Of a stretch of 64,000 nt of DNA, positions 17,172 through 31,806 are shown piece after piece. Origin of the DNA: an uncultured Gammaproteobacteria bacterium (GTDB taxonomy: Bacteria > Pseudomonadota > Gammaproteobacteria > JACCXJ01); contig CAVXTM010000016.1 of NCBI GenBank assembly GCA_963764725.1, positions 64,001 through 128,000 of the forward strand. The letters are read 5' to 3'. A program made the translations under genes and the position numbers. How positions within the stretch are numbered: the stretch's first letter is position 1; the number at the start of each line of letters is the position of its first letter. The notes beneath the pieces were generated by a model that saw only the letters and a list, made by a program, of their open reading frames with translations, searched no databases and had not been told where the DNA came from.

Positions 17172-17511
17172 TGGGTCACGATGCGTGTAAGGCGGGGTAT
17201 ACAATTAACGCCTTTTTGCTCCGATAGGAAAGTACTGAGGGCCGGCGCTGTTGTCAATCACAGTGCACATCGAGCGAAATCCGAAGATTTGATGAAGTTG
17301 CGGAATCAAGCGGGCAGTGGCGTATAGGTGACGCTGTCCAAATAGGTGCTTCGGACCGTCGGTGAAGAGTGTAGAACAATGCTTCCTTGAGCGATCCTGG
17401 ATGAGTGCGATGAAAGGAGTTCTTCCAAACGTGCAGCACACCGCGGGGCAGCGTAAACGATGACCTCGACCCACTGATCAACGCTGGCTATACGGAGAGA
17501 AGCGATCGTCC

Positions 17512-18282
17512 ATGTGCCAACTCCTGGGTATGAACTGCAATGTGCCGACCGACATCTGTTTTTCCTTTGAAGGCTTCCGTGTTCGCGGCGGGCTGACCGA
17601 CCACCACCGCGACGGCTGGGGGATCGCTTTCTTCGAAGGCCGCGGTTGCCGGGTCTACTTGGATTCCAAGGCCACGATCGAATCGCCGGTGGCCGATCTG
17701 GTCCGGAACTACCCCATTCGTTCGGCGAATGTCATCGCCCACATCCGGAAAGCGACCCGGGGTCGGATAGCGTTGGAGAATTGCCATCCATTTCAGCGCG
17801 AGCTCTGGGGCCAATATTGGCTCTTCGCGCATAACGGCACGCTCGAAAATTTCGACCCTGCCGTCTGCGAGGTCTTCCGGCCGGTCGGAGAGACCGATAG
17901 CGAGAGCGCCTTCTGCTACCTGCTCGAAGGGTTGCGCCGGGAGTTCCCGGTAGGGCCTCCGGGCTGTCGCGATACCTATCAGGTACTGACACGCATTAAC
18001 TCCGCGATCGCCCGTCACGGCGACTTCAATTATTTGCTGTCTAACGGGGACGTCCTGTACGCACACTGTTCGACCAATCTCTATTTCATTACGCGCAAGG
18101 ATCCCTTTACCTCCGCGCACCTGGTTGATCAGGACGTCACGGTAGATTTCAGCACACTCACAAGACCCAGCGACAAGGTCTCGGTGATCGCGACACTGCC
18201 GCTCACCGATAACGAGGCATGGACGAGGCTGGAGCCCGGACAATTGCTGATGTTTCAGGACGGCGAGCCGGTAACGGTTTAA
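17512..18282 (+). CDS. Class II glutamine amidotransferase (YafJ-like)
   Basis: MCQLLGMN, DGWGIAF, AHIRKAT, NCHPF, FAHNG, TDSE. Confidence 0.93.
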   Translation: MCQLLGMNCNVPTDICFSFEGFRVRGGLTDHHRDGWGIAFFEGRGCRVYLDSKATIESPVADLVRNYPIRSANVIAHIRKATRGRIALENCHPFQRELWGQYWLFAHNGTLENFDPAVCEVFRPVGETDSESAFCYLLEGLRREFPVGPPGCRDTYQVLTRINSAIARHGDFNYLLSNGDVLYAHCSTNLYFITRKDPFTSAHLVDQDVTVDFSTLTRPSDKVSVIATLPLTDNEAWTRLEPGQLLMFQDGEPVTV

Positions 18283-18503
18283 GCGAATAATCCTTTCCCG
18301 ACCGGGCACGGTGGTGGATCGCCCGACCGCCCACATAAAAAAGCCCCCTCGCGGGGGCAAAGTTGTGGAGGCTAGGCTGTAGCGCATCTTAGGGGAGTTC
18401 GAGCCGTTGCGGAATGTGACAAATTGCCGCACGGCTGCATCGACGCAAGCGCCGAGTGTTGCAAATCACGCTGCAGTGATCTGGGATGGGCTACGAAAAT
18501 GGG

Positions 18504-19412
18504 CTCATCGTGAAAGTGAGTGGGTAGAAAATGATGTTTTCACAGCACCGGCAGCATGCAGGTAAGCACCTTAAGGCGCAGGTAATGCTGGTCGCGGAGT
18601 CCGTAGGCGCGGCGCTGGATGACGCGGATCTTGTTGTTGAGTCCTTCGACGAATCCGAGAGAGATCTTGTTCTCTGGTTTGCAATAAGCAGCGATCCCAT
18701 CCCAATGGCGCTCGATCATCTCGGCGAATTTCTCGTACGGTTTCAGGCGCTGCCATTTAAGCGCGTTGCGCCAGTTTTCGAAGAAACGTCGCGCCCAGGC
18801 TTCGCGCTCGTAGCACCACAACTGGCCGAAGGATTCCTTGAGCAGATAAGCGGTATTCAATCGCTTGTTGGCGGCGAGGAGCCTTTTCAGGGCGGCTCGA
18901 CCATCGAGGGTCAGATGCTCCCGCCGGGAGAGCAGCGTATACCTTTGACCCTTGATGTAGCTCCGTTTCTCGCCGCTGAGCCGGGCATACTCCTCCTTGC
19001 GGATCTTATCGAGCGCCTCACCCAGGTGACGCATCACGTGAAATTTATCGAACAGGATAGCCGCCTGGGGTGCTTGTTCTCTGGTACTGTTGCGAAACGG
19101 CTTCCACATGTCCATCACGGCCAAGCGTACCCCCTTGGTTTTACGTGGCCCCAGCCAGGTGAAGAATTCGTCCATGCTGGCCTCCGAGCGACCGGTTCCG
19201 CCGAACCAAATGGGTCGGCCACGGAGGAGATCGCTGACCACGATGCGATAGGTGTGACCCTTGCGGATGGCGATCTCATCGATGCCGATAACCGCAGGTC
19301 CTGGCCGGCCAGCCCGTGCAAGCTGCGCACCCATGTATTGCTTGTCCAACTCCTTGACCGTCTGCCAGTCGAGATCCAACTCATCGGCCACCGCTTTGAT
19401 GGTGCTCGTGCG
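18504..19412 (-). mobile_element. ISL3 element, 5'-truncated transposase plus right end
   Basis: IGIDEIAIRKGHTY, MDMWKPF, FDKFHV, VEGLNNKIRVIQRRAYG; terminus GGCTCATCGTGAAAGTGAGTGGG. Confidence 0.85.
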
Positions 19413-19755
19413 CCAGCTCGCGCTCAGTTGCGGGACGGTGGAGTTGCAGCGGCCGCGGGTACGGGGGGAGGAGGAGCGCTTTGAGAGTCGGCTCTTACCC
19501 TTGTTTGTTCGCCGGACGGAGGGCGTTGCGGAGTTGCTTCCCACCTTATATCTGCACGGGCTGTCGATGGGGGATTTTGAGCTAGCGCTCCGTGGGCTGC
19601 TCGGGGACGGGGCGCCGCTCTCGGGGAGTTCGATTGCGCGGCTGAAGACGAAATGGCAGGGAGAATATGCGGTTTGGAGTCAACGCTCTCTCGCGGAGTT
19701 GGAGGTCGTCTATCTGGGTCGACGGGGTGTATGTAAAAGCCGGATTGGAGAAGTG
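19412..19755 (+). pseudogene. IS256 transposase internal fragment
   Basis: RPRVRG...FESRLLP...LYLHGLSMGDF...VYL(W)VDGVYVKAGLEK. Confidence 0.8.
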
Positions 19756-19822
19756 ATCTTGTAAGCTTTCGATAGACGACTTAATCGAGGTAAATTGGAG
19801 TGGACCACGAGAGGAGTCGGAG

Positions 19823-20091
19823 ATGGAGAAACTTAAGCGGCGGCAGTTTACCGCCGAGTTCAAGATAGAAGCGGTGAAGCTGGTGCTCGAGCAGGGCTAC
19901 AGCTATGCCGAGGCAGGCAAACGATTGGGGGTTCTGGCGAAGTTGATAAAGGCGTGGGCAAAGAAATATCGGGGGGGGGGTGAATTGGTTGCCGGTGCGC
20001 CGCGCTTGCGGGTGACACCGGAGCAGCAGGAGCTCAGCCGGTTGCGCCAGGAGGTGCAACGATTGCGGATGGAACGTGACATTCTAAAAAA
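19823..20091 (+). pseudogene. IS3 OrfA interrupted by IS110
   Basis: RRQFTAEFKIEAVKLV...ELSRLRQEVQRLRMERDILK, then IS110 sequence. Confidence 0.85.
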
Positions 20092-20328
20092 CCTTCTAAG
20101 GGGCGTGCCCACTACCTGTAGGAGTAGAAACTCCGGTGATTTTATACTGCCCCGGACGAAGGGAGCGGCCGTTGGCTTTTTGGTGGCATTGACCCCGTAA
20201 AAAAACGTGGTCCAGGGACAGTAGCGCACTTGGCAGTGGTGACACCGTTTCGGTGATCCCGGTTAGGAAAGTGATGATTGAGCGCCGTCCCGCCCTTCGA
20301 TTCTTTTGGCAAACGGTGGAGAACGAAG
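20092..20328 (+). ncRNA. Candidate IS110 bridge/seek RNA (non-coding leader)
   Basis: Long leader with pairing segments CGAAGGG/CCCTTCG and CACCG-TTT-CGGTG, plus motifs matching the target and the element end. Confidence 0.55.
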
Positions 20329-21702
20329 ATGGCGCGAGCGAGAAAGCCGAAAGGCAAGCGGCAAACATTATCGGTGGTTCATCCGAAGGCGGCGGGAATT
20401 GATGTCGGCGCACAGATCCACGTGGTTGCAGTTCCGGTGGAACTGGCAGCGGAGGCGGTGCAAACATTCAAAAGTTTCACCCGCGATCTACATCGACTTG
20501 CTGGTTGGCTAGTTGATCTGGGTATCACAACGGTTGCCATGGAATCGACGGGCGTGTACTGGGTCCCCCTCTTTGAGATATTAGAGAGTCGTGGTATTGA
20601 AGTTCTCTTAGTCAATGCCCGTCACGCCAAAGCGGTCCCTGGGCGCAAGACCGATGTCAATGACGCGCAATGGTTGCAACAACTGCACGCCTGCGGTCTT
20701 TTACGCGGAAGTTTCCATCCCGAGCGGGAGGTGGCTGTTTTACGGGCCTACGTGCGACAACGCGATCGGCTTTCGGACTACGCCGCTTCCCATATTCAAC
20801 ACATGCAGAAAGCGCTGAACCAGATGAATCTGCAGCTGCAGCACGTCGTGACCGACATTACTGGTGCCACGGGGTTGACGATTATCCGTGCCATTGTCGC
20901 TGGAGAACGCGATCCTGCGGTATTGGCAAGTTACCGTGATGTACGCTGTAAGGAATCGGTTGAGGCAATCCGCGAAGCGCTCGTCGGTCACTATCTTCCC
21001 GAGCACGTCTTTGCGCTGCGCCAAGCCCTCGAGCTTTATGATTTCTACCAGCAGCAAATCGCCGCGTGTGATGTGGAGATTGAACAGGCCCTGGCCCGGC
21101 TTGGTCACGGGAGGGAATTACCGGCCACCCCCTTGCCCAAGCCCAAGCATCGAGGTCGTGCACCCAATGCACCGAGATTTGATATTCGCATGGCTCTTTA
21201 TACGGTGGTTGGTACCGACGTGACCCAAATCCACGGGATGGGCCCGCACCTCGCGTTGAAACTCCTGGGAGAATGCGGAACGGACATGTCACGTTGGCTC
21301 AGTGCGAAGCACTTCACCTCCTGGCTAGCGTTGGCGCCCGGGAACAAAATCTCCGGCGGGAAATTATTATCGTCCAGAACGCGTCCCTCATCGAGTCGCG
21401 CTGCGGCGCTCTTACGCCTGGCCGCGACCACCCTTGCCAGAAGCGATACGGCTCTGGGCGCCTTTTACCGCCGCCTTGGCGCGCGGGTGGGTAAAGCCAA
21501 AGCTGTCACCGCCACCGCGCGCAAGCTCGCAGTCTTGTTCTACAATGCCCTGCGCTACGGCCTTGATTACGTTGACCCGGGCGCATCGTACTACGAAGAG
21601 CGCTATCGTCAACGTACGCTCTCGAACCTTCGTCAACGCGCGCGAGCTTTGGGCTTTGAACTCTTACCGCGCACGGAGGAGGCCGTGGCGGGAGTTTCTT
21701 AG
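20329..21702 (+). CDS. IS110 DEDD recombinase
   Basis: GIDVGA, AMESTGVYW, KTDVNDAQWL, NKISGGK. Confidence 0.93.
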   Translation: MARARKPKGKRQTLSVVHPKAAGIDVGAQIHVVAVPVELAAEAVQTFKSFTRDLHRLAGWLVDLGITTVAMESTGVYWVPLFEILESRGIEVLLVNARHAKAVPGRKTDVNDAQWLQQLHACGLLRGSFHPEREVAVLRAYVRQRDRLSDYAASHIQHMQKALNQMNLQLQHVVTDITGATGLTIIRAIVAGERDPAVLASYRDVRCKESVEAIREALVGHYLPEHVFALRQALELYDFYQQQIAACDVEIEQALARLGHGRELPATPLPKPKHRGRAPNAPRFDIRMALYTVVGTDVTQIHGMGPHLALKLLGECGTDMSRWLSAKHFTSWLALAPGNKISGGKLLSSRTRPSSSRAAALLRLAATTLARSDTALGAFYRRLGARVGKAKAVTATARKLAVLFYNALRYGLDYVDPGASYYEERYRQRTLSNLRQRARALGFELLPRTEEAVAGVS

Positions 21703-21742
21703 TCCCTTATCCATGAAATCTTGTGCAAAAAAGCAAAGAGTG

Positions 21743-22829
21743 TCATGCATGAGCGGTATTGAGAGCAGGCATGACCACATACTCTCGGATAGCGAGTGCG
21801 CTGCTGAGCACACGACGACCGAATGTCGTGAGGTAGTACTTGTAGCGATGTCCAATCTTTTTGATGAGGCCATGGGTGCGCAAGCGTTTCAACCAGTAGG
21901 AGGCACGGCCGGTGGAGAGATCCCGGAGATGGGCTCGGAGATCGGAGGCGCGAAAGCCGCTGATGTTCCACTCCCCGCGGGCGAGGGTGATAAAAAGGCT
22001 ATGATCTTCACCGAGGAAGAGATTGAAGCCCCGATAGGAGCGGTCTTTCTCTCGTACAGGTTTGGCCATTTTGTCGATGGCGTGCAGAGCTGCATTGGGG
22101 TTATCGATGCTGGCCATGAAGCTGAGATAGCGTTCATTGGCAGCATGCATCAGCTCTCGCAGATCGGGGAGGCTATAGATGTTTTTTCGCAGGGGTGCGA
22201 GTTTGAATTGCTTGCGCCCATTGCGTTGTTCCACCCAACGGTGGTGTTTGAAGAAGGAGACATCGTTGGCGGTGCATTCCACCCGAGCCATGAGACTGAA
22301 TTTATCGTAGAGCTTGAGGCTTGCTGGTCCCATATGATGGCGGATGCGTGTACCCTGAATGCGGGTGTGAAAATCGTTACCGGCCTCCCCGCTGAAGGCC
22401 GAGGTAAGTTTGCGTCCCAAGAAGGTGGCGACGTGTTCTGCCTTGAGGGCATGCACGGCGGTACGCACGATGGCTTGATAGAGGGGTTGGAAATCGGCTT
22501 GGCGGTGGAAGATGACATCGGTCGAGAAAGCCAGGGCCAGGGAGTGGCCCTGCTTGGCGCGCCGAGGATGCAACTCCACCTGCATGCAGCTCCAGTGATA
22601 ACCAGCGCGAAACTGACCCAAGATAGGACAGAAGCTTTTCGCCCATCGGTCCAAACGCCGATGCAAGCCTTTGGGATCGAGGCTATCGGCAAGCGCCTGA
22701 GCCTGTTGGGGATCGCCGATGGACAAGAAGGCATTATCGGCGCGCTCAAAGGCGATCCCTGTCTTGGTCAGTCGTTGGGCTAACCAGTGATGGCCGTTCA
22801 AATAGACCTGCAGGCGAAACGGTGCCCAG
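21743..22829 (-). pseudogene. 5'-truncated putative transposase of an unclassified element (family usually annotated as MarR-like)
   Basis: NGHHWLAQRL, DNAF, LKLYDK...RVECTANDV, C-terminal wHTH LKRLRTHGLIKKI...YYLT; lies inside the IS cluster. Confidence 0.55.
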
Positions 22830-23724
22830 GTGGGTACTCTGCGACTCGATTATCCGATGAGGCTATTGTGCCGTGTGATGGGGGTTTCGGCCAGTGGCTA
22901 TTATGCGAGGCTTTGCCGTCCGCCCTCGAAGCGATCGAGGGAGGAGGTGCGCTTGAAGGTCGCGATCGGTGCAGCCCATGAACGCACCCGTGGCACCTAT
23001 GGTGCGGAGCGTTTGCAAAAAGAGCTACAAGCCGAAGGTATTCAGGCGGGGGTGGGGCGGATCAAACGCCTTCGCAAGCAGCTTGGGCTATGTTGCAAAC
23101 AACGGCGTAAGTTCAAAGCCACAACCCATTCCAACCATCGGCTGGCGGTTGCAGAGAACCTCCTCGATCAGAATTTTGCAGCGACTCGGCCTAACCAGAT
23201 CTGGGTCGCCGACATCAGCTATGTGCCGACCGATGAGGGCTGGTTATACCTCGCTGCCCTCAAGGACCTCTACACCTGCGAGATCGTCGGCAGAGCGCTC
23301 TCGGAACGCATGAGCAAGGAGCTCGTGGGCCGGGCGCTGATCCAGGCGGTCGCAGCCAAACGCCCAGCGGCAGGGCTGATTCATCATTCTGATCGAGGCA
23401 GTCAATACTGCTCGCATGACTACCGGAAACTCCTCGAGCAATTTGGCATGAAAGCTTCCATGAGCCGCAAAGGCAACTGCTACGACAATGCCCCGGTGGA
23501 GAGTTTCTTCGCCTCGTTAAAAACCGAGCTCGTTTATCATCGGCGCTACCAGACGCGTCGCCAGGCCGTGGCCGAAATCACCGAGTATATCGACCTTTTT
23601 TACAATCGCCAGCGGCGGCATTCGAGACTCGGGTATCTCTCGCCCATGGCTTTCATTATAAAATACTGGGAGAAACGACAGGCAGCTTAAAAGTTATGGC
23701 GTCCACTATTGACAACCGACCTCA
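22830..23724 (+). mobile_element. IS3 OrfB (DDE) with right inverted repeat
   Basis: WVADISY, HHSDRGSQY, GNCYDNAPVESFF; end GGCGTCCACTATTGACAACCGACCTCA. Confidence 0.92.
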
Positions 23725-25730
23725 CCTTTACCTGATAACGAACAAGAGGGTCGGTCGTATCCTGTTTGAACAACTGCCCAAATACTTCATGCGAAATACG
23801 GCTTTGCTCATCGCGGAACGCGCGCTCGCTCCGGAGTTGATCGAGCCGCCGCAGTATTTGCTCAACTAATGCACCCAGCCTGCTGGGAATGGTGTTTTCC
23901 TCAAAGGAAATGCGAAACGCCTGGACGAAATCGTCGTTCGGGCGCGCCAGTAGCTGGTCGAGCACCAACGGGATACCGTGACGACCCCAGCCGTAAAACG
24001 CTTCCGCTGGGATCTCCGTTTCGCGCTCAAGCCTTGCCGCCTGCCGTACCAATTCGATGTGCTCGGGGGGAATGCCGGTTTCGGGGGCGAGAAAAGCTGT
24101 GTCGTCATCCGTCAAGTCGGCGAGTTTAACGCCTTCCAAAACCGGTTCGAGCTCGGCTAGGTGTTCCTCGTATGTGCAAGCCGCGCATGGTTTACAAAAT
24201 AGACCGGGGCGCATGGTTTACAAATTCTCTCCCTGTCCGTGCCATTGGCTGGGAGGGTTGATTTTCTGGTTTCGCTCATTGAGTACACCCAGAAGATGAA
24301 AGCTATAGCGTACTTCCCACAGGAACTCGTCAATCTGGTGCATGCCGATCGGTTCCTTGGCCAGAATGTCTGAGACATAGAGCAGATGGCCTTTCCACTT
24401 GATTTCGCCATTATGTCGCACCCTTCGGACCGTCACCTCAGTCCCATACGCCACTGGCGGCAGCTTCGTGGGATAACTCCTGGGCGAGGCCGTGTACCGT
24501 TCACGAGGTGTTCGCCGTGCCAGCGCTTCATGGCTACGCTCTGCGTTGTACTCGCTGACAAACGCGTTAAAGCGTTGCTGCTGGGCTTCGAGCGTCGCTG
24601 CAGGAGGCGCCACCGCGGCTTCTTTCAACGTCCGATGCATGCGCTCATGTCGGCCATTCTGATCCGGCCGGCCAGGTTCAATGCGCTCGGGACGGATACC
24701 CAGCCGAATCCACCAGGCCGACAGCCGACTCAACCCACCCACCGCCAGCGAGGCAAAGGGGGCGCCGTTGTCGGTCCGTATAGCTTCCGGCAATCCGTAC
24801 TCCCGAAAGACCCATTCGAACCAAGGCTGGACCTCGGCTCACGTCGGTCGTGCCAGACCTCGGCACTGCAAGAGGTAACGGCTGAAGTTGTCCGTCATCG
24901 TCAGCGGGTAACAGCGCCGGCCATCGCCCAGCACGAAATCGCCTTTGAAGTCCGCGCTCCAAAGGGCATTGGCGCCGTCGCAGTGGAGCAACGGCTCGCT
25001 GTGAGGCGCCACCCGCCGACGGCGGCGACGCGGACCCACCAGACCCGCCCGCTTCAGAATCTCACCCGCCGTACTGTCGGCGGGCCAAGCCACCGCGGGA
25101 TCTTCACGGCGCAACCCATCCATCACCTTCTTCGGCCCAAAACGTTGATGCCGCAGTTTGTACTGCACGATTCTTTCGCACAGCGCCGGTTCACTCGCAT
25201 TGGGATGATACTTGGCCGCCCGCGACCACTCCTTGAGCCCATCCAGCCCCAACCGCTGGTACCGCTCAATCCATTTGTCACCTGTCGGGCGACTGATCCC
25301 ATAAAACTCACACAAATTGATCTTGGGGCACTGACCATTCAACCAGTCACCGATAAATTGAACTCGTTGGTCCATCGCACAGGTCTCTTTCCACGGCATT
25401 GGCGTTTCCTCCTCGCCAATACCATAACTGATGTAAACCATGTGCCCGGTTTGTTTTTGTAAAGGATCATACCGGTTTGTACCCCCCCGTTTGGTCGAAG
25501 ATCCGGACGATCAGGTCAGCGGTATGCTTCTCCGCTCTCCGGAATTGTTCGGCCGCATAGGAGATTTGATATTCGCCATTAGTATCGGTAACCGCTTCAC
25601 CCAGGAATTGTTCCGCACGAAGGTCCTTGTCGAATGCACGAATGATATAGCCGCTTAAGTCGAAGACCTCGCCCGAGCGGCTAACCTTACCTCTTACGAT
25701 AAACCGCACGGTGGTTATAACGGAGCTCAT
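23725..25730 (-). pseudogene. N-terminus of a large Tc-toxin-A-like/carboxypeptidase-regulatory-like protein, split by IS481 and IS3
   Basis: IRAFDKDLRAEQFLGEAVTD...ADLIVRIFD (25481-25730) and FLAPETG...IPAEAFYGWGR (23725-24172). Confidence 0.45.
24173..25481 (-). mobile_element. IS481-family element; transposase 24218-25399 has an internal stop at 24839
   Basis: MPWKE, WSADFKG, IRTDNGAPF, QNGRHERMHRTLK; repeated terminal CATGGTTTACA sites at both ends. Confidence 0.88.
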
Positions 25731-25864
25731 ATCGCTACCTCTTGTGGTGGCCTACCGATTACACACGAGAACGGCTCGCAGAGCGCCGCAAGCAGACTAA
25801 GCGACTGGCTGGGCGCTCCGCGTTATAATTAGATGCTCCTATGGTTAGGAAACGAGGTAGCATC

Positions 25865-26065
25865 ATGAAAGTCGCCGATCTCACGGTTGAACAATTGCGA
25901 ACGCTAATCAAGAAAGTCGTGCACGAAGAGTTGCGCGACCTGATGACCGATCCCGATAAGGGACTGGAACTGACCGACGAGATCCAAACACGGCTGCAAG
26001 CGTCCCTGGCCTCCGAAGGCCGGATCTCCTTCGAGGACGTGCAACGAAGGCTGAATCTCGCTTGA
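25865..26065 (+). CDS. Putative antitoxin
   Basis: 66 aa, acidic C-terminus ISFEDV, overlaps a RelE-type toxin. Confidence 0.7.
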   Translation: MKVADLTVEQLRTLIKKVVHEELRDLMTDPDKGLELTDEIQTRLQASLASEGRISFEDVQRRLNLA

Positions 26066-26325
26066 CCTATAACGTCGAGTTCACCTCTCAAGCGCTCGAG
26101 GATCTCTCCCGCCTTGATGCCGCAATCGCCAGACGCATCGCCGAAAAAATCCAGTGGCTCGCCGAGCATTTCGATCAAATCCAAGCCGAGACGCTGACAG
26201 GACGCTTTGCAGGTCTGTTCAAGCTCCGGGTCGGTGACTGGCGCGTACTTTACACGACCGATCCGGCTCAACGCATCATCACGGTTCATGTGATTGCCCA
26301 TCGCAGCAAGGTTTATAAGTCCTGA
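26062..26325 (+). CDS. RelE/ParE family toxin
   Basis: YNVEFTSQALEDLSRL, KLRVGDWRVLY, IAHRSKVY. Confidence 0.88.
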   Translation: MTYNVEFTSQALEDLSRLDAAIARRIAEKIQWLAEHFDQIQAETLTGRFAGLFKLRVGDWRVLYTTDPAQRIITVHVIAHRSKVYKS

Positions 26326-26379
26326 CACGCGTGTGCATCGCGCACCTCACTCAACCTTCATTTCCGTTCGGCAAGGCCT

Positions 26380-26880
26380 CGCCGCTACCGGCCCAATCGA
26401 CCGGCAACCCACCCAGAGGAACGTAGCGGTGGAACGACGAATAAGGCCAATCGTCAATCGTCGCCCCAAACCATGCTTCATAGGATTCCAATGCACGTAA
26501 TCGACGTGCCGGGCGTAATCGGCCTCGTCACGAATGACGTGCTCCCAGAAGCGCTGCCTCCATGCCCCTCGCTCTCCTTCGTCATCCGGACCTTCGAGCG
26601 CCGCTCGGTGCGGGGTAGCGCCTGCACGAATCGTATCTTGATCGCCTCCCAGCGATTGGAGAAATCATCATCGCCCGGCGGCAAGGTCCAAATGCAATGC
26701 AGGTAGTCGGGAAAGACCACCCAGGCGTCGATGTGAAACGGCCGCTCCCGCCGCGTCACTCGCACCGCCTCGCGTAGCGCATCGACATGGCGCACCAGCG
26801 TATCCAGCCGCCGCTCCAACAGGGTTCACCGTAAAGAAATAGGTGCCGCCCAGCACCCGAAAACGTCGATAGTCCAACAT
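26380..26880 (-). pseudogene. REP-associated tyrosine transposase (RAYT), frameshifted
   Basis: YRR...GGTYFFTVN / PFHIDAWVVFPDYLHCIWTLP / RFWEHVIRDEADYARHVDYVHWNP in three frames. Confidence 0.85.
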
Positions 26881-26896
26881 AAAACTCCATACCCGT

Positions 26897-27044
26897 CGTA
26901 GGGCGGAAGCCCGAAGGGTGTTCCGCCAAATGGGATAATCCAAATCAACGGCACGCGATCCATCAAATATGTCTCCCTTCACACTCGGCGGAACCCGCAG
27001 AGCCATTCCCATCCGGCGAAACCCATTTCATGGTTCCGTCTTAC
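26897..27044. repeat. REP-like hairpins flanking the RAYT gene
   Basis: GTAGGGCGGAA...TTCCGCC at 26897-26927, and an inverted degenerate partner GGCGGAACC...GGTTCCGTCTTAC. Confidence 0.65.
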
Positions 27045-27085
27045 GCGGGTTCGGAACGTGGTGGATACCCCGTTCCGCGCGGGAG

Positions 27086-27685
27086 CTACCTACGGGCGCC
27101 TTGATACTTTGGTAGGTTGAGCACCGGCCACTTAGGCGGACTATCTCCGGATATGTCCAGCATTCTCTGCCGATCAGCTTCGCGCGAATCTGCTCGTAGA
27201 AGAAACGGTATATTCCACCCTTTGATTTGGCGACTATACTCGCCAGGATTCACTTCCGTTCCGAATCTGTCTCGCTTTTCAAACTCGTAATAATCACGAA
27301 ACCTACCAAAAACCTTGGTTATCTGTATCTCGACAGTGTCTCCCTTCTCCGAAACGCGCCAAGCATAGTCGGCCTCAACTGTTAGGAGAGCGTGTCCAGA
27401 ACCCCATGCTTGATCCGCACCTCTAGCACCTGGCCACCATCCCTCAGACTGTGCCAGGAATTCTTCGGTAAGGTGAAAATGCTCTATGCCGCTACGTTGG
27501 CCTCGGTGTGCTCTAGCAGCCGCTTCTTCGGTCATGCGGCTCAGGCTTTCTTCCAAGAGTTGTGAGTAGGCTTTACCGCAGCCAGACATTACCCATTCCT
27601 TTTCTACTGTAGAGCTTCCGTCAAGAAGTGTGTAAATAAGTTCAGGCGGCCTTTCTGAGGGTGTCATCATTTTTTCGTATGCCAT
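27086..27685 (-). CDS. Hypothetical protein (possibly the C-terminal remnant of a larger gene)
   Basis: 199-codon ORF with lower GC, adjacent to an IS256 scrap; no family recognised. Confidence 0.45.
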   Translation of the reverse strand: MAYEKMMTPSERPPELIYTLLDGSSTVEKEWVMSGCGKAYSQLLEESLSRMTEEAAARAHRGQRSGIEHFHLTEEFLAQSEGWWPGARGADQAWGSGHALLTVEADYAWRVSEKGDTVEIQITKVFGRFRDYYEFEKRDRFGTEVNPGEYSRQIKGWNIPFLLRADSREADRQRMLDISGDSPPKWPVLNLPKYQGARR

Positions 27686-27714
27686 CGGCGAACGGGATGC
27701 CGCGATAGACTTCT

Positions 27715-27872
27715 TTAAGTAACCCCGCGGCGTTCAATCGGCGGAACGTCGTTTCAGCGACCCTCATGATTTCCAGATCAGCGCGGTGGCGTTCTCGACG
27801 TTCTTGAACCGCTTGGCGGCATCGGTACGCAGCCGTACGGCGGCAAAGGGCGACTCGATCGGGTTAGTGGTC
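27715..27872 (-). pseudogene. IS256 transposase C-terminal fragment
   Basis: TTNPIESPFAAVRLRTDAAKRFKNVENATALIWK. Confidence 0.8.
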
Positions 27873-27906
27873 TGAGGTCGGTTGTCAATAGTGGACGCCA
27901 TAACTT

Positions 27907-28770
27907 TTAAGCTGCCTGTCGTTTCTCCCAGTATTTTATAATGAAAGCCATGGGCGAGAGATACCCGAGTCTCGAATGCCGCCGCTGGCGATTGTAAAAA
28001 AGGTCGATATACTCGGTGATTTCGGCCACGGCCTGGCGACGCGTCTGGTAGCGCCGATGATAAACGAGCTCGGTCTTTAACGTGGCGAAGAAACTCTCCA
28101 CCGGGGCATTGTCGTAGCAGTTGCCTTTGCGGCTCATGGAGGCTTTCATGCCAAATTGCTCGAGGAGTTTCCGGTAGTCATGCGAGCAGTATTGACTGCC
28201 TCGATCAGAATGATGAATCAGCCCTGCCGCTGGGCGTTTGGCTGCGACCGCCTGGATCAGCGCCCGGCCCACGAGCTCCTTGCTCATGCGTTCCGAGAGC
28301 GCTCTGCCGACGATCTCGCAGGTGTAGAGGTCCTTGAGGGCAGCGAGGTATAACCAGCCCTCATCGGTCGGCACATAGCTGATGTCGGCGACCCAGATCT
28401 GGTTAGGCCGAGTCGCTGCAAAATTCTGATCGAGGAGGTTCTCTGCAACCGCCAGCCGATGGTTGGAATGGGTTGTGGCTTTGAACTTACGCCGTTGTTT
28501 GCAACATAGCCCAAGCTGCTTGCGAAGGCGTTTGATCCGCCCCACCCCCGCCTGAATACCTTCGGCTTGTAGCTCTTTTTGCAAACGCTCCGCACCATAG
28601 GTGCCACGGGTGCGTTCATGGGCTGCACCGATCGCGACCTTCAAGCGCACCTCCTCCCTCGATCGCTTCGAGGGCGGACGGCAAAGCCTCGCATAATAGC
28701 CACTGGCCGAAACCCCCATCACACGGCACAATAGCCTCATCGGATAATCGAGTCGCAGAGACCTCATCAA
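27907..28770 (-). CDS. IS3 OrfB transposase
   Basis: Near-identical to 22830-23690. Confidence 0.9.
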   Translation of the reverse strand: MMRSLRLDYPMRLLCRVMGVSASGYYARLCRPPSKRSREEVRLKVAIGAAHERTRGTYGAERLQKELQAEGIQAGVGRIKRLRKQLGLCCKQRRKFKATTHSNHRLAVAENLLDQNFAATRPNQIWVADISYVPTDEGWLYLAALKDLYTCEIVGRALSERMSKELVGRALIQAVAAKRPAAGLIHHSDRGSQYCSHDYRKLLEQFGMKASMSRKGNCYDNAPVESFFATLKTELVYHRRYQTRRQAVAEITEYIDLFYNRQRRHSRLGYLSPMAFIIKYWEKRQAA

Positions 28771-28813
28771 CGCGTACCTCGTAGCGACTCCTTGGCAAAG
28801 TACGCGGTGGCTT

Positions 28814-30425
28814 CCTAAGAAACTCCCGCCACGGCCTCCTCCGTGCGCGGTAAGAGTTCAAAGCCCAAAGCTCGCGCGCGTTGACGAAGGTTCGAGAGCG
28901 TACGTTGACGATAGCGCTCTTCGTAGTACGATGCGCCCGGGTCAACGTAATCAAGGCCGTAGCGCAGGGCATTGTAGAACAAGACTGCGAGCTTGCGCGC
29001 GGTGGCGGTGACAGCTTTGGCTTTACCCACCCGCGCGCCAAGGCGGCGGTAAAAGGCGCCCAGAGCCGTATCGCTTCTGGCAAGGGTGGTCGCGGCCAGG
29101 CGTAAGAGCGCCGCAGCGCGACTCGATGAGGGACGCGTTCTGGACGATAATAATTTCCCGCCGGAGATTTTGTTCCCGGGCGCCAACGCTAGCCAGGAGG
29201 TGAAGTGCTTCGCACTGAGCCAACGTGACATGTCCGTTCCGCATTCTCCCAGGAGTTTCAACGCGAGGTGCGGGCCCATCCCGTGGATTTGGGTCACGTC
29301 GGTACCAACCACCGTATAAAGAGCCATGCGAATATCAAATCTCGGTGCATTGGGTGCACGACCTCGATGCTTGGGCTTGGGCAAGGGGGTGGCCGGTAAT
29401 TCCCTCCCGTGACCAAGCCGGGCCAGGGCCTGTTCAATCTCCACATCACACGCGGCGATTTGCTGCTGGTAGAAATCATAAAGCTCGAGGGCTTGGCGCA
29501 GCGCAAAGACGTGCTCGGGAAGATAGTGACCGACGAGCGCTTCGCGGATTGCCTCAACCGATTCCTTACAGCGTACATCACGGTAACTTGCCAATACCGC
29601 AGGATCGCGTTCTCCAGCGACAATGGCACGGATAATCGTCAACCCCGTGGCACCAGTAATGTCGGTCACGACGTGCTGCAGCTGCAGATTCATCTGGTTC
29701 AGCGCTTTCTGCATGTGTTGAATATGGGAAGCGGCGTAGTCCGAAAGCCGATCGCGTTGTCGCACGTAGGCCCGTAAAACAGCCACCTCCCGCTCGGGAT
29801 GGAAACTTCCGCGTAAAAGACCGCAGGCGTGCAGTTGTTGCAACCATTGCGCGTCATTGACATCGGTCTTGCGCCCAGGGACCGCTTTGGCGTGACGGGC
29901 ATTGACTAAGAGAACTTCAATACCACGACTCTCTAATATCTCAAAGAGGGGGACCCAGTACACGCCCGTCGATTCCATGGCAACCGTTGTGATACCCAGA
30001 TCAACTAGCCAACCAGCAAGTCGATGTAGATCGCGGGTGAAACTTTTGAATGTTTGCACCGCCTCCGCTGCCAGTTCCACCGGAACTGCAACCACGTGGA
30101 TCTGTGCGCCGACATCAATTCCCGCCGCCTTCGGATGAACCACCGATAATGTTTGCCGCTTGCCTTTCGGCTTTCTCGCTCGCGCCATCTTCGTTCTCCA
30201 CCGTTTGCCAAAAGAATCGAAGGGCGGGACGGCGCTCAATCATCACTTTCCTAACCGGGATCACCGAAACGGTGTCACCACTGCCAAGTGCGCTACTGTC
30301 CCTGGACCACGTTTTTTTACGGGGTCAATGCCACCAAAAAGCCAACGGCCGCTCCCTTCGTCCGGGGCAGTATAAAATCACCGGAGTTTCTACTCCTACA
30401 GGTAGTGGGCACGCCCCTTAGAAGG
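28814..30425 (-). mobile_element. IS110-family element, copy 2
   Basis: Removing it restores IS3 OrfA ERDILK(K)ATAYFAKES. Confidence 0.93.
28815..30188 (-). CDS. IS110 DEDD recombinase
   Basis: Translation identical to copy 1. Confidence 0.93.
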   Translation of the reverse strand: MARARKPKGKRQTLSVVHPKAAGIDVGAQIHVVAVPVELAAEAVQTFKSFTRDLHRLAGWLVDLGITTVAMESTGVYWVPLFEILESRGIEVLLVNARHAKAVPGRKTDVNDAQWLQQLHACGLLRGSFHPEREVAVLRAYVRQRDRLSDYAASHIQHMQKALNQMNLQLQHVVTDITGATGLTIIRAIVAGERDPAVLASYRDVRCKESVEAIREALVGHYLPEHVFALRQALELYDFYQQQIAACDVEIEQALARLGHGRELPATPLPKPKHRGRAPNAPRFDIRMALYTVVGTDVTQIHGMGPHLALKLLGECGTDMSRWLSAKHFTSWLALAPGNKISGGKLLSSRTRPSSSRAAALLRLAATTLARSDTALGAFYRRLGARVGKAKAVTATARKLAVLFYNALRYGLDYVDPGASYYEERYRQRTLSNLRQRARALGFELLPRTEEAVAGVS

Positions 30426-30756
30426 TTTTTTAGAATGTCACGTTCCATCTGCAATCGTTCCGCAACTCCCGCTGCAACCGGGTGAGCTCTGCTTCTACCG
30501 CCGTCACCGGCAAGCGGTTCGACCCCACCTCTCAAGTTTCCCCCCCGAGTTCTTTGCCCACGCCGTTCACTAAGGTCTTCGCTGACATCGATAACCAATC
30601 GATGCCGCCTCGGTAGCTTTTAACCTCTCCTCCACAACCAGCTTCACCGCATTCTCACGAAACTCTTTCGTGTAAACCTGCTTCGGTAACTTATTCATTG
30701 AACACCTCCTTCTCCTATACCCTATCGAAGGCGTCCATTTTTTTCATCCTACCTCA

Positions 30757-30968
30757 AGGCATCCGACCTCGACGCAGGCGCCGAGCCGAAGGACCTGGGT
30801 CAGGATACGACCGACGGACAGGGCTTTTTCACCCTCGTCTTTACACCGGCAAAGACGAACCAATAACGGATGACACCACGCGCCGGTTGCGTCTACGGAT
30901 TAACGACCCAGAGGGCAAAGAACTTGCGACGGTCGAGAAGACGGTCAACGTCAAACAGCCGGTATTAC
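30757..30968 (+). pseudogene. Continuation of the gene broken at 23725
   Basis: Joining through the shared AGG gives QVKASDLDAGAEPKDLGQDTTDGQGFFTL. Confidence 0.6.
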
Positions 30969-31806
30969 TCAAGGTTTCAGGCGCTGCCATTTAAGCGCGT
31001 TGCGCCAGTTTTCGAAGAAACGTCGCGCCCAGGCTTCGCGCTCGTAGCACCACAACTGGCCGAAGGATTCCTTGAGCAGATAAGCGGTATTCAATCGCTT
31101 GTTGGCGGCGAGGAGCCTTTTCAGGGCGGCTCGACCATCGAGGGTCAGATGCTCCCGCCGGGAGAGCAGCGTATACCTTTGACCCTTGATGTAGCTCCGT
31201 TTCTCGCCGCTGAGCCGGGCATACTCCTGCTTGCGGATCTTATCGAGCGCCTCACCCAGGTGACGCATCACGTGAAATTTATCGAACAGGATAGCCGCCT
31301 GGGGTGCTTGTTCTCTGGTACTGTTGCGAAACGGCTTCCACATGTCCATCACGGCCAAGCGTACCCCCTTGGTTTTACGTGGCCCCAGCCAGGTGAAGAA
31401 TTCGTCCATGCTGGCCTCCGAGCGACCGGTTCCGCCGAACCAAATGGGTCGGCCACGGAGGAGATCGCTGACCACGATGCGATAGGTGTGACCCTTGCGG
31501 ATGGCGATCTCATCGATGCCGATAACCGCAGGTCCTGGCCGGCCAGCCCGTGCAAGCTGCGCACCCATGTATTGCTTGTCCAACTCCTTGACCGTCTGCC
31601 AGTCGAGATCCAACTCATCGGCCACCGCTTTGATGGTGCTCGTGCGGCAGCGCCGCCCGACGTAGAAAGCAAAGCGCTTGGTGTAGAAAGGGTTGTCGGC
31701 CAGAAAGTCCAGACGCTCGCGCTTCACCTTGCCGCACTGCCGGCAATCCACACGCCGGACCTCCAACTCCAGCCGCACGTGCGTATCCCCGCAGGAGAGA
31801 TCTCAA
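30969..31806 (-). mobile_element. ISL3 transposase fragment (second copy)
   Basis: CRQCG zinc finger, IGIDE, FDKFH; near-identical to 18740-19412. Confidence 0.85.

Follow-up and report, generated by a model that had tools for sequence, protein, structure and literature searches.

A predicted RNA-guided IS110-family element and its relatives at the A-runs of IS3 and IS630-type transposase genes

Genetic context of the IS110-family element

The genome of an uncultured Gammaproteobacteria bacterium (GenBank assembly GCA_963764725.1) carries, in a 64000 nucleotide (nt) stretch of contig CAVXTM010000016.1 (positions 64001 to 128000, forward strand; referred to here as the window), two copies of an insertion sequence (IS) of the IS110 family, each located within the orfA gene of an IS3-type element. 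The original prediction, made from the letters of the window without database searches, had described the copies as apparently identical and as an RNA-guided hyperparasite of IS3. On alignment, the copies matched 100% for 1611 nt from position 20092, with the first mismatch at offset 1611, and they are the only full copies of the element in the 4.2-Mb genome. The arms of the inverted repeat that they form span 20058–21702 and 28815–30459. The relevant features are:

20092–21702, + strand: IS110-family element copy 1, 1611 nt identical to copy 2, with PF01548 and PF02371
28814–30425, − strand: IS110-family element copy 2, the sole copy with both junctions intact
20092–20328, + strand: left end (leader) of 237 nt, predicted to encode a guide RNA; conserved in 66 unique homologous leaders
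20329–21702, + strand: DEDD recombinase gene, 457 amino acids (aa), PF01548 (2.5e-20) and PF02371 (2.8e-11)
20126–20134, + strand: left sub-terminal inverted repeat AGAAACTCC, partner GGAGTTTCT
21691–21699, + strand: right sub-terminal inverted repeat GGAGTTTCT
19823–20091, + strand: 5' part of orfA of IS3_A, PF01527; its translation ends ...RMERDILK(K) at the A-run
22837–23724, + strand: IS3 orfB and right inverted repeat beside copy 1, 99.66% identical to those beside copy 2
30426–30756, − strand: left inverted repeat and orfA (with frame breaks) of IS3_B, up to the A-run
27873–28813, − strand: remainder of IS3_B, beginning AAGCCACC and comprising the end of orfA, orfB and the right inverted repeat

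Upstream of both copies, ATGGAACGTGACATTCTAAAAAA is found within an IS3 orfA, and 24 nt are identical before the first mismatch to the left at offset 25. The left junction in both cases reads ...ATTCTAAAAAA followed by the start of the element, CCTTC. The other junction of copy 2, where TTTCTTAGG is joined to AAGCCACCGCG, was read in the sequence just as had been predicted, and the complete set for this copy is therefore ...ATTCTAAAAAA then CCTTC on one side and TTTCTTAGG then AAGCCACC on the other. Both junctions of copy 2 are also covered by contigs of runs X1 and X2, which may be the source samples of the genome. Copy 1 has no intact right junction; a truncated third IS is found there, joined to orfB, 54 nt of the IS3 are missing, and the last base of the copy (the second G of TTAGG) has been replaced at the joint.

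The two IS3 hosts had been called otherwise divergent. This holds for the orfA genes, which clearly belong to different elements (the PF01527 match for the left flank of copy 1 spans 19823–20200), but not for the orfB parts, as 22837–23724 and 28760–27873 share 99.66% identity over 888 nt. The left inverted repeat of IS3_B resembles the shared right inverted repeat, whereas the left end of IS3_A does not.

Both Pfam scores of the recombinase exceed the curated cut-offs. When the window protein was aligned with 17 homologues, D25, E72, D109, D112 and S342-G343 were invariant, and P337 and G338 were also invariant or nearly so among the 18. From the motif description in PMC11187229, a putative catalytic role can be assigned to the DEDD tetrad and the C-terminal G--P----SG motif. 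As is usual in the IS110 family, the element has no terminal inverted repeats (its ends are CCTTC... and ...TTAGG) and is inserted at a specific site in a fixed orientation; the repeat in this family does not exceed 2 nt, and here AA stands on both sides. The transposase stop codon TAG (21700–21702) sits inside the terminal TTAGG; the gene thus reaches the end of the element and the 237-nt left end is the only sizeable non-coding part. The sub-terminal repeats covary among relatives, AGAAACAC occurring with GTGTTTCT and AGAAGCTCA with TGAGCTTCT, and position 10 of the right end (RE) is complementary to the column of 20132 in 45 of 45 cases.

At least 8000 homologues of the recombinase were found at E<=1e-30, and the 119 matches listed, the window's own protein aside, are 66–76% identical. 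As homologues occur on 253 plasmid records, the clade travels widely. The PLSDB annotation round two of the plasmid matches lists no pseudogenes, and shows neither an element name nor a broken IS3. A DNA search of 15 genomes of the window's family (including the unpublished genomes G008, G011 and G012, which contribute to this negative alone) found no close copy outside the window's own genome, only short parts with 67–91% identity. In the window's own genome, a distant IS110-family relative (G000:C1:455153-455829) shares 71–81% DNA identity with parts of the transposase gene.

Insertion sites of related elements

A scan of genome contigs, using the alignment of 18 proteins, yielded 79 loci, which were analysed together with 2.5-kb flanks and originate from Acidobacteriota, Alpha-, Beta- and Gammaproteobacteria, a Cyanobacterium, Chlorobiaceae, Verrucomicrobia and others. 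For nine of 88 recombinase matches the leader was incomplete or could not be aligned, and these were excluded from the site counts (L019, L029, L031, L040, L052, L061, L064, L065 and L069). The counts refer to 75 distinct junction rows, 73 from relatives and two from the window. In many loci, tblastn with the window OrfA identified an orfA ending at DILK ~230–250 nt upstream of the recombinase start, and tblastn with the window OrfB identified an orfB on the same strand ~80–100 nt past the recombinase stop.

An IS3-type orfA and/or orfB abuts the element on the same strand in 41 of the 75 rows, an IS630-type N-terminal gene in 11 and an IS4-like gene in two, while six rows are inner junctions of tandem arrays. 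No flank-gene match was obtained for 15 rows, some of them on contigs too short to score in which the flank still reads ...ERDILKK. The families of extra seed proteins were checked by Pfam on 10 representative flanks.

Unique left flanks end in A6 or longer in 52 of 65 cases, and 57 of 58 right flanks open with AA after TTAGG. The flank logo reads T-(C/T)-(T/C/A)-AAAAAA, then the element, then AA-(A/G)-(G/C)-C, and the right end GTTTCTTAGG is nearly invariant among relatives. This preference for the A-run goes beyond chance. Site specificity is seen across phyla: relatives from many of them occupy the same place in IS3, in agreement with the proposal that the target is the IS3 frameshift A-run.

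Relatives are arranged in tandem, head to tail, at L034, L041, L054, L070, L071, L077 and L092, with up to three in L054. The inner junctions consist of the RE, two to four A's and the left end (LE), for example in L034, L054, L070, L071, L077 and L092. The two relatives adjoining each other at L041 are distinct elements, with 65% and 67% identity to the query.

Predicted RNA structure of the left end

The 66 unique leaders were aligned and RNAalifold was run on 58 of them, with the outer stem that had been proposed earlier added. The consensus fold comprises six helices and 32 pairs, 20 of which show changes on both sides, and the leader is thus predicted to specify a conserved, covarying RNA. 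The proportion of cells paired was 91.5%, compared with 82.2% in column shuffles and 36–58% with slid partners, and none of 500 shuffles reached any of the measures. Three G-U pairs are shared by all 58 sequences and identify the + strand as the RNA strand. The predicted structures are:

20157–20299, + strand: structured core of a bridge-type RNA (predicted), outer stem 20157–20163/20293–20299
20167–20212, + strand: target-binding stem-loop (predicted), stem 20167–20171/20208–20212 and inner stem 20181–20186/20193–20197
20215–20291, + strand: second, donor-binding stem-loop (predicted), stems 20215–20219/20287–20291, 20225–20227/20282–20284 and 20237–20244/20253–20260

The segments CGAAGGG and CCCTTCG (20157–20163 and 20293–20299), picked out in the original prediction as pairing partners, are present and form the outer stem. 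This stem encloses two stem-loops, each with a large internal loop. Helices 2 and 3, in the target stem-loop, are 97.6–99.7% paired, and helices 4–6, in the second stem-loop, 95–99.5% paired. Features known from bridge RNAs are hence found here in predicted form, namely a structured RNA in the non-coding end and two loop segments for opposite strands of the target that overlap at the core.

Predicted guide segments and their covariation with target sites

Three short segments of the leader had been singled out as candidate guides, TGGCTTTTT (20173–20181), TAAAAAAA (20198–20205) and TTAGGAA (20263–20269). All were found at these positions and lie in the two internal loops, where they can be assigned as right-target, left-target and left-donor guides:

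20172–20181, + strand: right-target guide UUGGCUUUUU on the 5' side of loop 1, reverse complement of the target AAAAAGCCAA
20198–20206, + strand: left-target guide UAAAAAAAC on the 3' side of loop 1, same sense as the left flank ...CTAAAAAA
20263–20269, + strand: left-donor guide UUAGGAA on the 3' side of loop 2, same sense as the right end TTAGG followed by the core AA

In the RNA, the 5' side of loop 1 reads UUGGCUUUU(U) and the 3' side UAAAAAAAC(G). The right guide of the window matches its right flank over 9 nt. Across relatives, both target-matching segments covary with the flanks. For the right guide, the sum of prefix matches was 80 compared with a permutation mean of 41.1 (sd 5.5; 0 of 10000 permutations; 57 unique sites), and for the left guide 247 compared with 211.9 (sd 4.9; 0 of 10000; 42 unique pairs). 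The covariation table covers the 66 leaders apart from L029, L031, L040, L061 and L069.

A stronger argument than the permutation tests is provided by natural retargeting. In six of six retargeted lineages, guide and flank share a departure from the A-run over at least 4 contiguous nt:

L058/59/62: guide GUUUGACAA, flank CTTTGACAA
L054 (lineage L054/57): guide AUAUAUAA, flank TTATATA(A)
L034/38: guide GGCAAA, flank GGGCAA(A)
L036: guide GAGCAAA, flank TGGCAAA
L042: guide CGAGAAA, flank TGGGAAA
L030: guide CCUAAAAA, flank TTTAAAAA

In the recombinase tree, each of the six is nested at a different place among A-run lineages (FastTree, midpoint root, support values aside; four of 61 proteins with an in-frame stop near the nominal start were left out).

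Smaller changes are also shared between guides and flanks. The left-guide variant GUAAAAAAA pairs with TCC-A7 flanks ('QKK' OrfA) and GUUAAAAAA with T-A6 flanks, while GUCAAAAAA exactly matches GTC-A6 ('LSKK') in L086 and L091. Right guides and the flanks they face include:

Window: right guide UGGCUUUUU (DNA TGGCTTTTT), flank AAGCCA
L033, L053 and L083: right guide AAAAGUUUUU (DNA AAAAGTTTTT), flank AAACTT
L021 and L068: right guide GCCUUUU, flank AAGGC
L025: right guide CAGCUUU, flank AAAGCTG
L081: right guide CAACUU, flank AAGTTG

The match between UUAGGAA and the right end is uninformative in most relatives because both are almost invariant. L066 is the exception, with a compensatory donor change in which the right end TTTCTCAGG (TCAGG) is accompanied by the loop GUUCAGGAA (UCAGG). 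When leader columns were compared with flank or end positions by mutual information, the signal came mainly from subclade structure; only position +5 of the right flank against 20175 and the sub-terminal repeat stood out.

Empty sites and the core

An uninterrupted copy of either IS3 was sought in the window's own genome and none was found, hence no empty site can be read there. Real empty sites were found in two other genomes. In G015, a Caedibacter record (L097–L104), an empty IS3 paralogue with 84% identity reads CTT-A6-GGCAGTTGCC in frame (ERDILKKAVAIF), and its sequence GAT ATC TTA AAA AAG GCA GTT GCC encodes ERDILKKAVA and includes an in-frame A AAA AAG heptamer. All seven copies of another IS3 in G015 (at least 99% identical, on the chromosome and a plasmid) are occupied. 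Either every IS3 copy was invaded or the composite IS3::IS110 is still mobilised in trans. The empty paralogue carries A6-GG where the occupied IS3 has A7-G. The occupied relatives in G015 fit an AA core with no length lost.

In G018, reached via L083, a single IS630-type element is present in 10 near-identical copies (L115–L124). Four are empty (TTT-A8-G-CTTCTC), three are occupied, with flanks 3 nt (one AAG codon) shorter and an exact match to the right guide, and three are scarred at the same spot. Two of the scars retain CGGGC, the 5 nt with which the IS110 left end opens, fused to the flank 13 nt further on, and the third is a plain deletion in the A-run. All this resembles what imprecise loss of the IS110 would leave behind.

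The core is most simply AA, but the number of A's varies, with two, three or four at tandem junctions.

In the window itself a homopolymer assembly error is possible, because the X1 contig that spans both junctions (record 7) has one letter more than the window over 28785–30450 and the orfA of IS3_B differs from an abundant X1 contig by many 1-nt insertions or deletions. Among the Logan contigs of runs X1–X4, which break at 28813 and 30450, none joins across the element to give an empty site, and no insertion or deletion is listed at the junction A-runs. In the sediment metagenome runs X1 and X2, contigs of IS3 parts have a depth of ~270–300 and the IS110 contig ~7, both summed over organisms, and the high-depth IS3 contigs end exactly at the IS110 junctions. 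This suggests that many unoccupied IS3 relatives are present in the community, with the qualification that the depths pool organisms.

The surrounding region

The two loci lie in a rearranged region where members of at least four IS families are crowded together. The third IS at the right end of copy 1 is:

21703–22839 (start may be 21699), strand not assigned: truncated copy of another multi-copy IS, sharing TTAG with the end of the IS110 element

It corresponds to the left 1141 bp of a longer IS, of which at least five other full-length matches are present in the genome (99.6–99.8% identical); these copies continue beyond the position of 22839 with common sequence. Its 352-aa open reading frame (ORF) on the minus strand gave no Pfam match. 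The left end of the IS3 of copy 1 interrupts an open frame at 19480–19755 that ends ...YLWVDGVYVKAGLEK and resembles what we take to be the N-terminal part of an IS256-type transposase. Two ORFs that overlap 17488–19484 had no Pfam match. A 300-nt direct repeat (100% identical; 18739–19038 and 30973–31272) brackets the whole IS3/IS110 cluster.

Proposed mode of insertion and alternative explanations

Taken with the comparative data, it is highly probable that the window carries an RNA-guided member of the IS110 family whose guides would direct it to the slippery A-run of IS3 and to the one in IS630-type genes, that it looks active, and that it belongs to a large and widespread clade with long (~455 aa) DEDD recombinases. 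The left end would encode a bridge- or seek-type RNA that chooses the insertion site and would be produced and bound by the recombinase. Loop 1 would carry the two target guides, and UUAGGAA in loop 2 would match the element's own right end plus the AA core. The target so specified would be a run of A6–8 with its neighbours, YTAAAAAA-RGC. In IS3 this motif is the slippery site A AAA AAG/A at which orfA gives way to orfB, and in IS630-type genes it is a Lys-Lys A-run that separates the DNA-binding part from the catalytic part. Insertion, probably via a circle intermediate and with a core of exactly AA, is co-oriented with the genes of the host IS and leaves AA on each side. With orfA split from orfB, the host IS can no longer make its fused transposase.

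The RNA-guided reading of the original prediction is supported by the sites of relatives, the covarying RNA and the guide-flank covariation. The further claim that the element disables IS3 holds in that insertion places 1.6 kb between orfA and orfB, so that the OrfAB fusion cannot be made; an evolved purpose is a matter of interpretation. The evidence shows a sequence-guided preference for a conserved A-run site, which serves as a target in IS630-type genes as well. As a name for what follows from insertion, the cutting of orfA from orfB, 'hyperparasite' is fair.

Several observations weigh against RNA-guided targeting of the A-run. Folded as a single sequence, 20140–20330 was no better than its shuffles (z 0.46), no Rfam family was matched (a search of 19500–31500 at E<=1 gave two chance hits to mir-932, E 0.98, in the transposase gene), and a scan of 19950–20400 for a sigma-70-like promoter found none. 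That scan likewise gave no sign of the promoter that bridge-RNA elements rebuild at the RE-LE junction, which was viewed by eye in tandem copies. A right-donor guide, complementary to the start of the left end, was found neither by mutual information nor by a 5-mer search; the first bases of the left end vary among relatives (C-N-N-N-C). The permutation tests ignore the relatedness of the elements. Beyond the A-run, the right-guide prefix match is only 0–1 in 35 of 57 sites, and the common left guide GUCAAAAAA has C against T in 13 flank pairs, the commonest left guide carrying C where most IS3 flanks carry T. Three flanks (L023, L048 and L050) have a G inside the A-run that is absent from the guide. 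With an AA core, the rebuilt empty site of the window, CTAAAAAAGCCACC, is 1 nt short for the ILKKATAYFAKES frame, and L067 is likewise 1 nt short of its frame, junction strings having been judged by eye.

One alternative concerns the breadth of the target. The guides may specify no more than an A-run plus 2–4 nt, IS3 and IS630 elements being simply the commonest multi-copy carriers of such runs, in which case the element would be no IS3 specialist. This is consistent with the IS630-type (11), IS4-like (2) and no-match (15) rows found beside the 41 IS3 rows, with right-guide matches that are often just the A-run plus G, and with some no-match sites, such as L025, L058 and L090, that do not resemble transposase genes. 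However, 54 of the 75 rows abut the transposase gene of another IS, far above the share of such genes in genomes (judged without a formal background count), guide variants follow IS3 subtypes (GUAAAAAAA with TCC-A7 and GUCAAAAAA with GTC-A6), and the retargeted L034 is again in a transposase gene. We consider this explanation rather unlikely, while giving it appreciable weight.

A second alternative concerns the history of the window copies. Because their right flanks hardly differ, the two copies need not be independent insertions, and a single IS3::IS110 insertion could have been duplicated, with the left side later swapped with that of a different IS3 within the shared 24–34 nt. The 99.66% identity of the right flanks over 888 nt beside diverged left flanks is what such a history predicts, and the left inverted repeat of IS3_B, but not the left end of IS3_A, matches the shared right inverted repeat; the truncated third IS and the 54-nt deletion at the right end of copy 1 show that ISs have been rearranged here. 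However, the exchange would have to fall inside 24 nt, since the copies differ at offset 25, whereas two guided insertions followed by recombination within the 1.6-kb IS110 call for no rare event and fit the site specificity seen elsewhere. The duplication history is therefore unlikely, and the hybrid locus 1 was most easily made by recombination between two occupied IS3s inside the identical IS110. The general conclusion is independent of this pair of copies, whichever history holds.

It is very improbable that the protein alone recognises the A-run, with the leader serving as a 5' untranslated region, promoter or end-recognition region. Most of the complementarity could reflect shared ancestry, given how little the A-run and the TTAGG-AA end vary. 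However, loop and flank have changed in concert at non-A positions in six lineages, the 5' loop segment covaries with the right-flank triplets, and both segments are unpaired in a loop framed by covarying stems, as in the relatives described in PMC11208160 and PMC11187229.

Comparison with known IS110-family elements

IS621 and ISEc21 use an RNA from the long non-coding end that has two loops with guides for both strands (PMC11208160, PMC11208158, PMC11187229). Like the window element, IS621 has a DEDD recombinase with PF01548 and PF02371, and a short core that is present on either side of the inserted element (PMC11208160, PMC11208158). The two differ in the size of the recombinase (457 aa in the window, 315–330 aa in the IS621 branch; Siddiquee 2024, PMC11187229), in the core (AA and CT, respectively) and in the target, which is an IS gene for the window element and a REP sequence for IS621. 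In IS621 the left target guide (LTG, nt 50–58) precedes the right target guide (RTG, nt 77–80) (PMC11208158), whereas this order is reversed in the window element, in which the guide pairing with the bottom strand is not 5' of the one pairing with the top strand as in bridge RNAs. In addition, and unlike IS621, the window element has an outer stem that encloses its two stem-loops and a 9-nt sub-terminal inverted repeat, and neither the junction promoter nor the right-donor guide described for IS621 was found in it.

ISEc21 is also of the IS110 family with an upstream non-coding region, and its seekRNA has a target inside IS3 elements (PMC11187229). It is thus a direct precedent for an RNA-guided IS landing in IS3, at a different IS3 site. 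The ISEc21 recombinase is 358 aa, compared with 457 aa. In its sequence (NZ_LT903847.1), a same-sense left match at ~101–112 of the non-coding region, located by eye, lies 5' of the reverse-complement right match at 128–135 located by a k-mer scan, and the guide order is therefore opposite to that of the window element.

In the IS1111 type, the top-strand guide is 5' of the bottom-strand guide and sub-terminal repeats of 7–17 bp are present (PMC11187229). The window element shares this order and has a sub-terminal repeat (9 nt, covarying), with terminal extensions of 34 nt on the left and 3–5 nt on the right compared with 7 and 3 nt in IS1111 (PMC11187229). However, the long non-coding region of IS1111 is downstream of the transposase gene, whereas in the window element it is upstream (237 nt). 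At 457 aa, the recombinase falls in the long size class of 'IS110 proper', for which 395–455 aa is given in PMC11187229. The window element therefore misses one defining feature each of the IS621/ISEc21 and IS1111 types, yet works like both.

Elements that target other mobile DNA are known from the IS1111 group, namely IS4321/IS5075 in the inverted repeats of Tn21, the IS1111-attC group, and IS1383 in the inverted repeats of IS1384 (PMC11208160, PMC11187229). These target ends or recombination sites, whereas the window element targets a translational recoding site. Tandem IS110 arrays have also been described (bioRxiv 10.64898/2026.08.14.744561). A full-text literature search, which did not extend to supplementary target catalogues, found no paper on insertion of an IS110-family element at the IS3 frameshift A-run, and 'IS3' is absent from the text of PMC11208160 and of bioRxiv 10.64898/2026.08.14.744561; Durrant Supplementary Data 2 or the AtaideLab/Targets logos, which lie outside that search, may already list an A-run target. 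What is novel here is the class of target and the guide layout, the mechanism class being already known.

Significance

A broader view can be put forward tentatively, and we regard it as somewhat less likely to be right than wrong. The clade may be a dedicated hunter of frameshift and Lys-Lys A-runs, exploiting a target that a host IS could not mutate without losing control of its own transposase. Its guides would then track IS subtypes or escape variants (CTA6, TCCA7, GTCA6, TTGGCAAA and CTGGGAAA) in an arms race, and its RNA would represent a third architecture, with a left-end RNA as in IS621 and an IS1111-type guide order within a three-way junction. The RNA may perhaps be transcribed by read-through from the host IS, since the scan gave no promoter for it and insertion invariably follows the orientation of the host genes.

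The RNA-guided IS110-family reading has implications of its own. It shows a natural use of programmability, the parasitising of transposons, by a large uncharacterised branch of RNA-guided recombinases. The motif targeted is one that IS3 elements must keep, as it is the recoding site that sets the OrfA:OrfAB ratio. For a bridge-type RNA unlike that of IS621 in guide order, AA core and fold, the clade offers ~60 guides paired in nature with their targets, along with several cases of natural retargeting, which are of interest for the engineering of these recombinases. The system also offers a setting in which conflict between mobile elements can be tested, and accounts for many of the 'broken' IS3 and IS630 genes in annotations.

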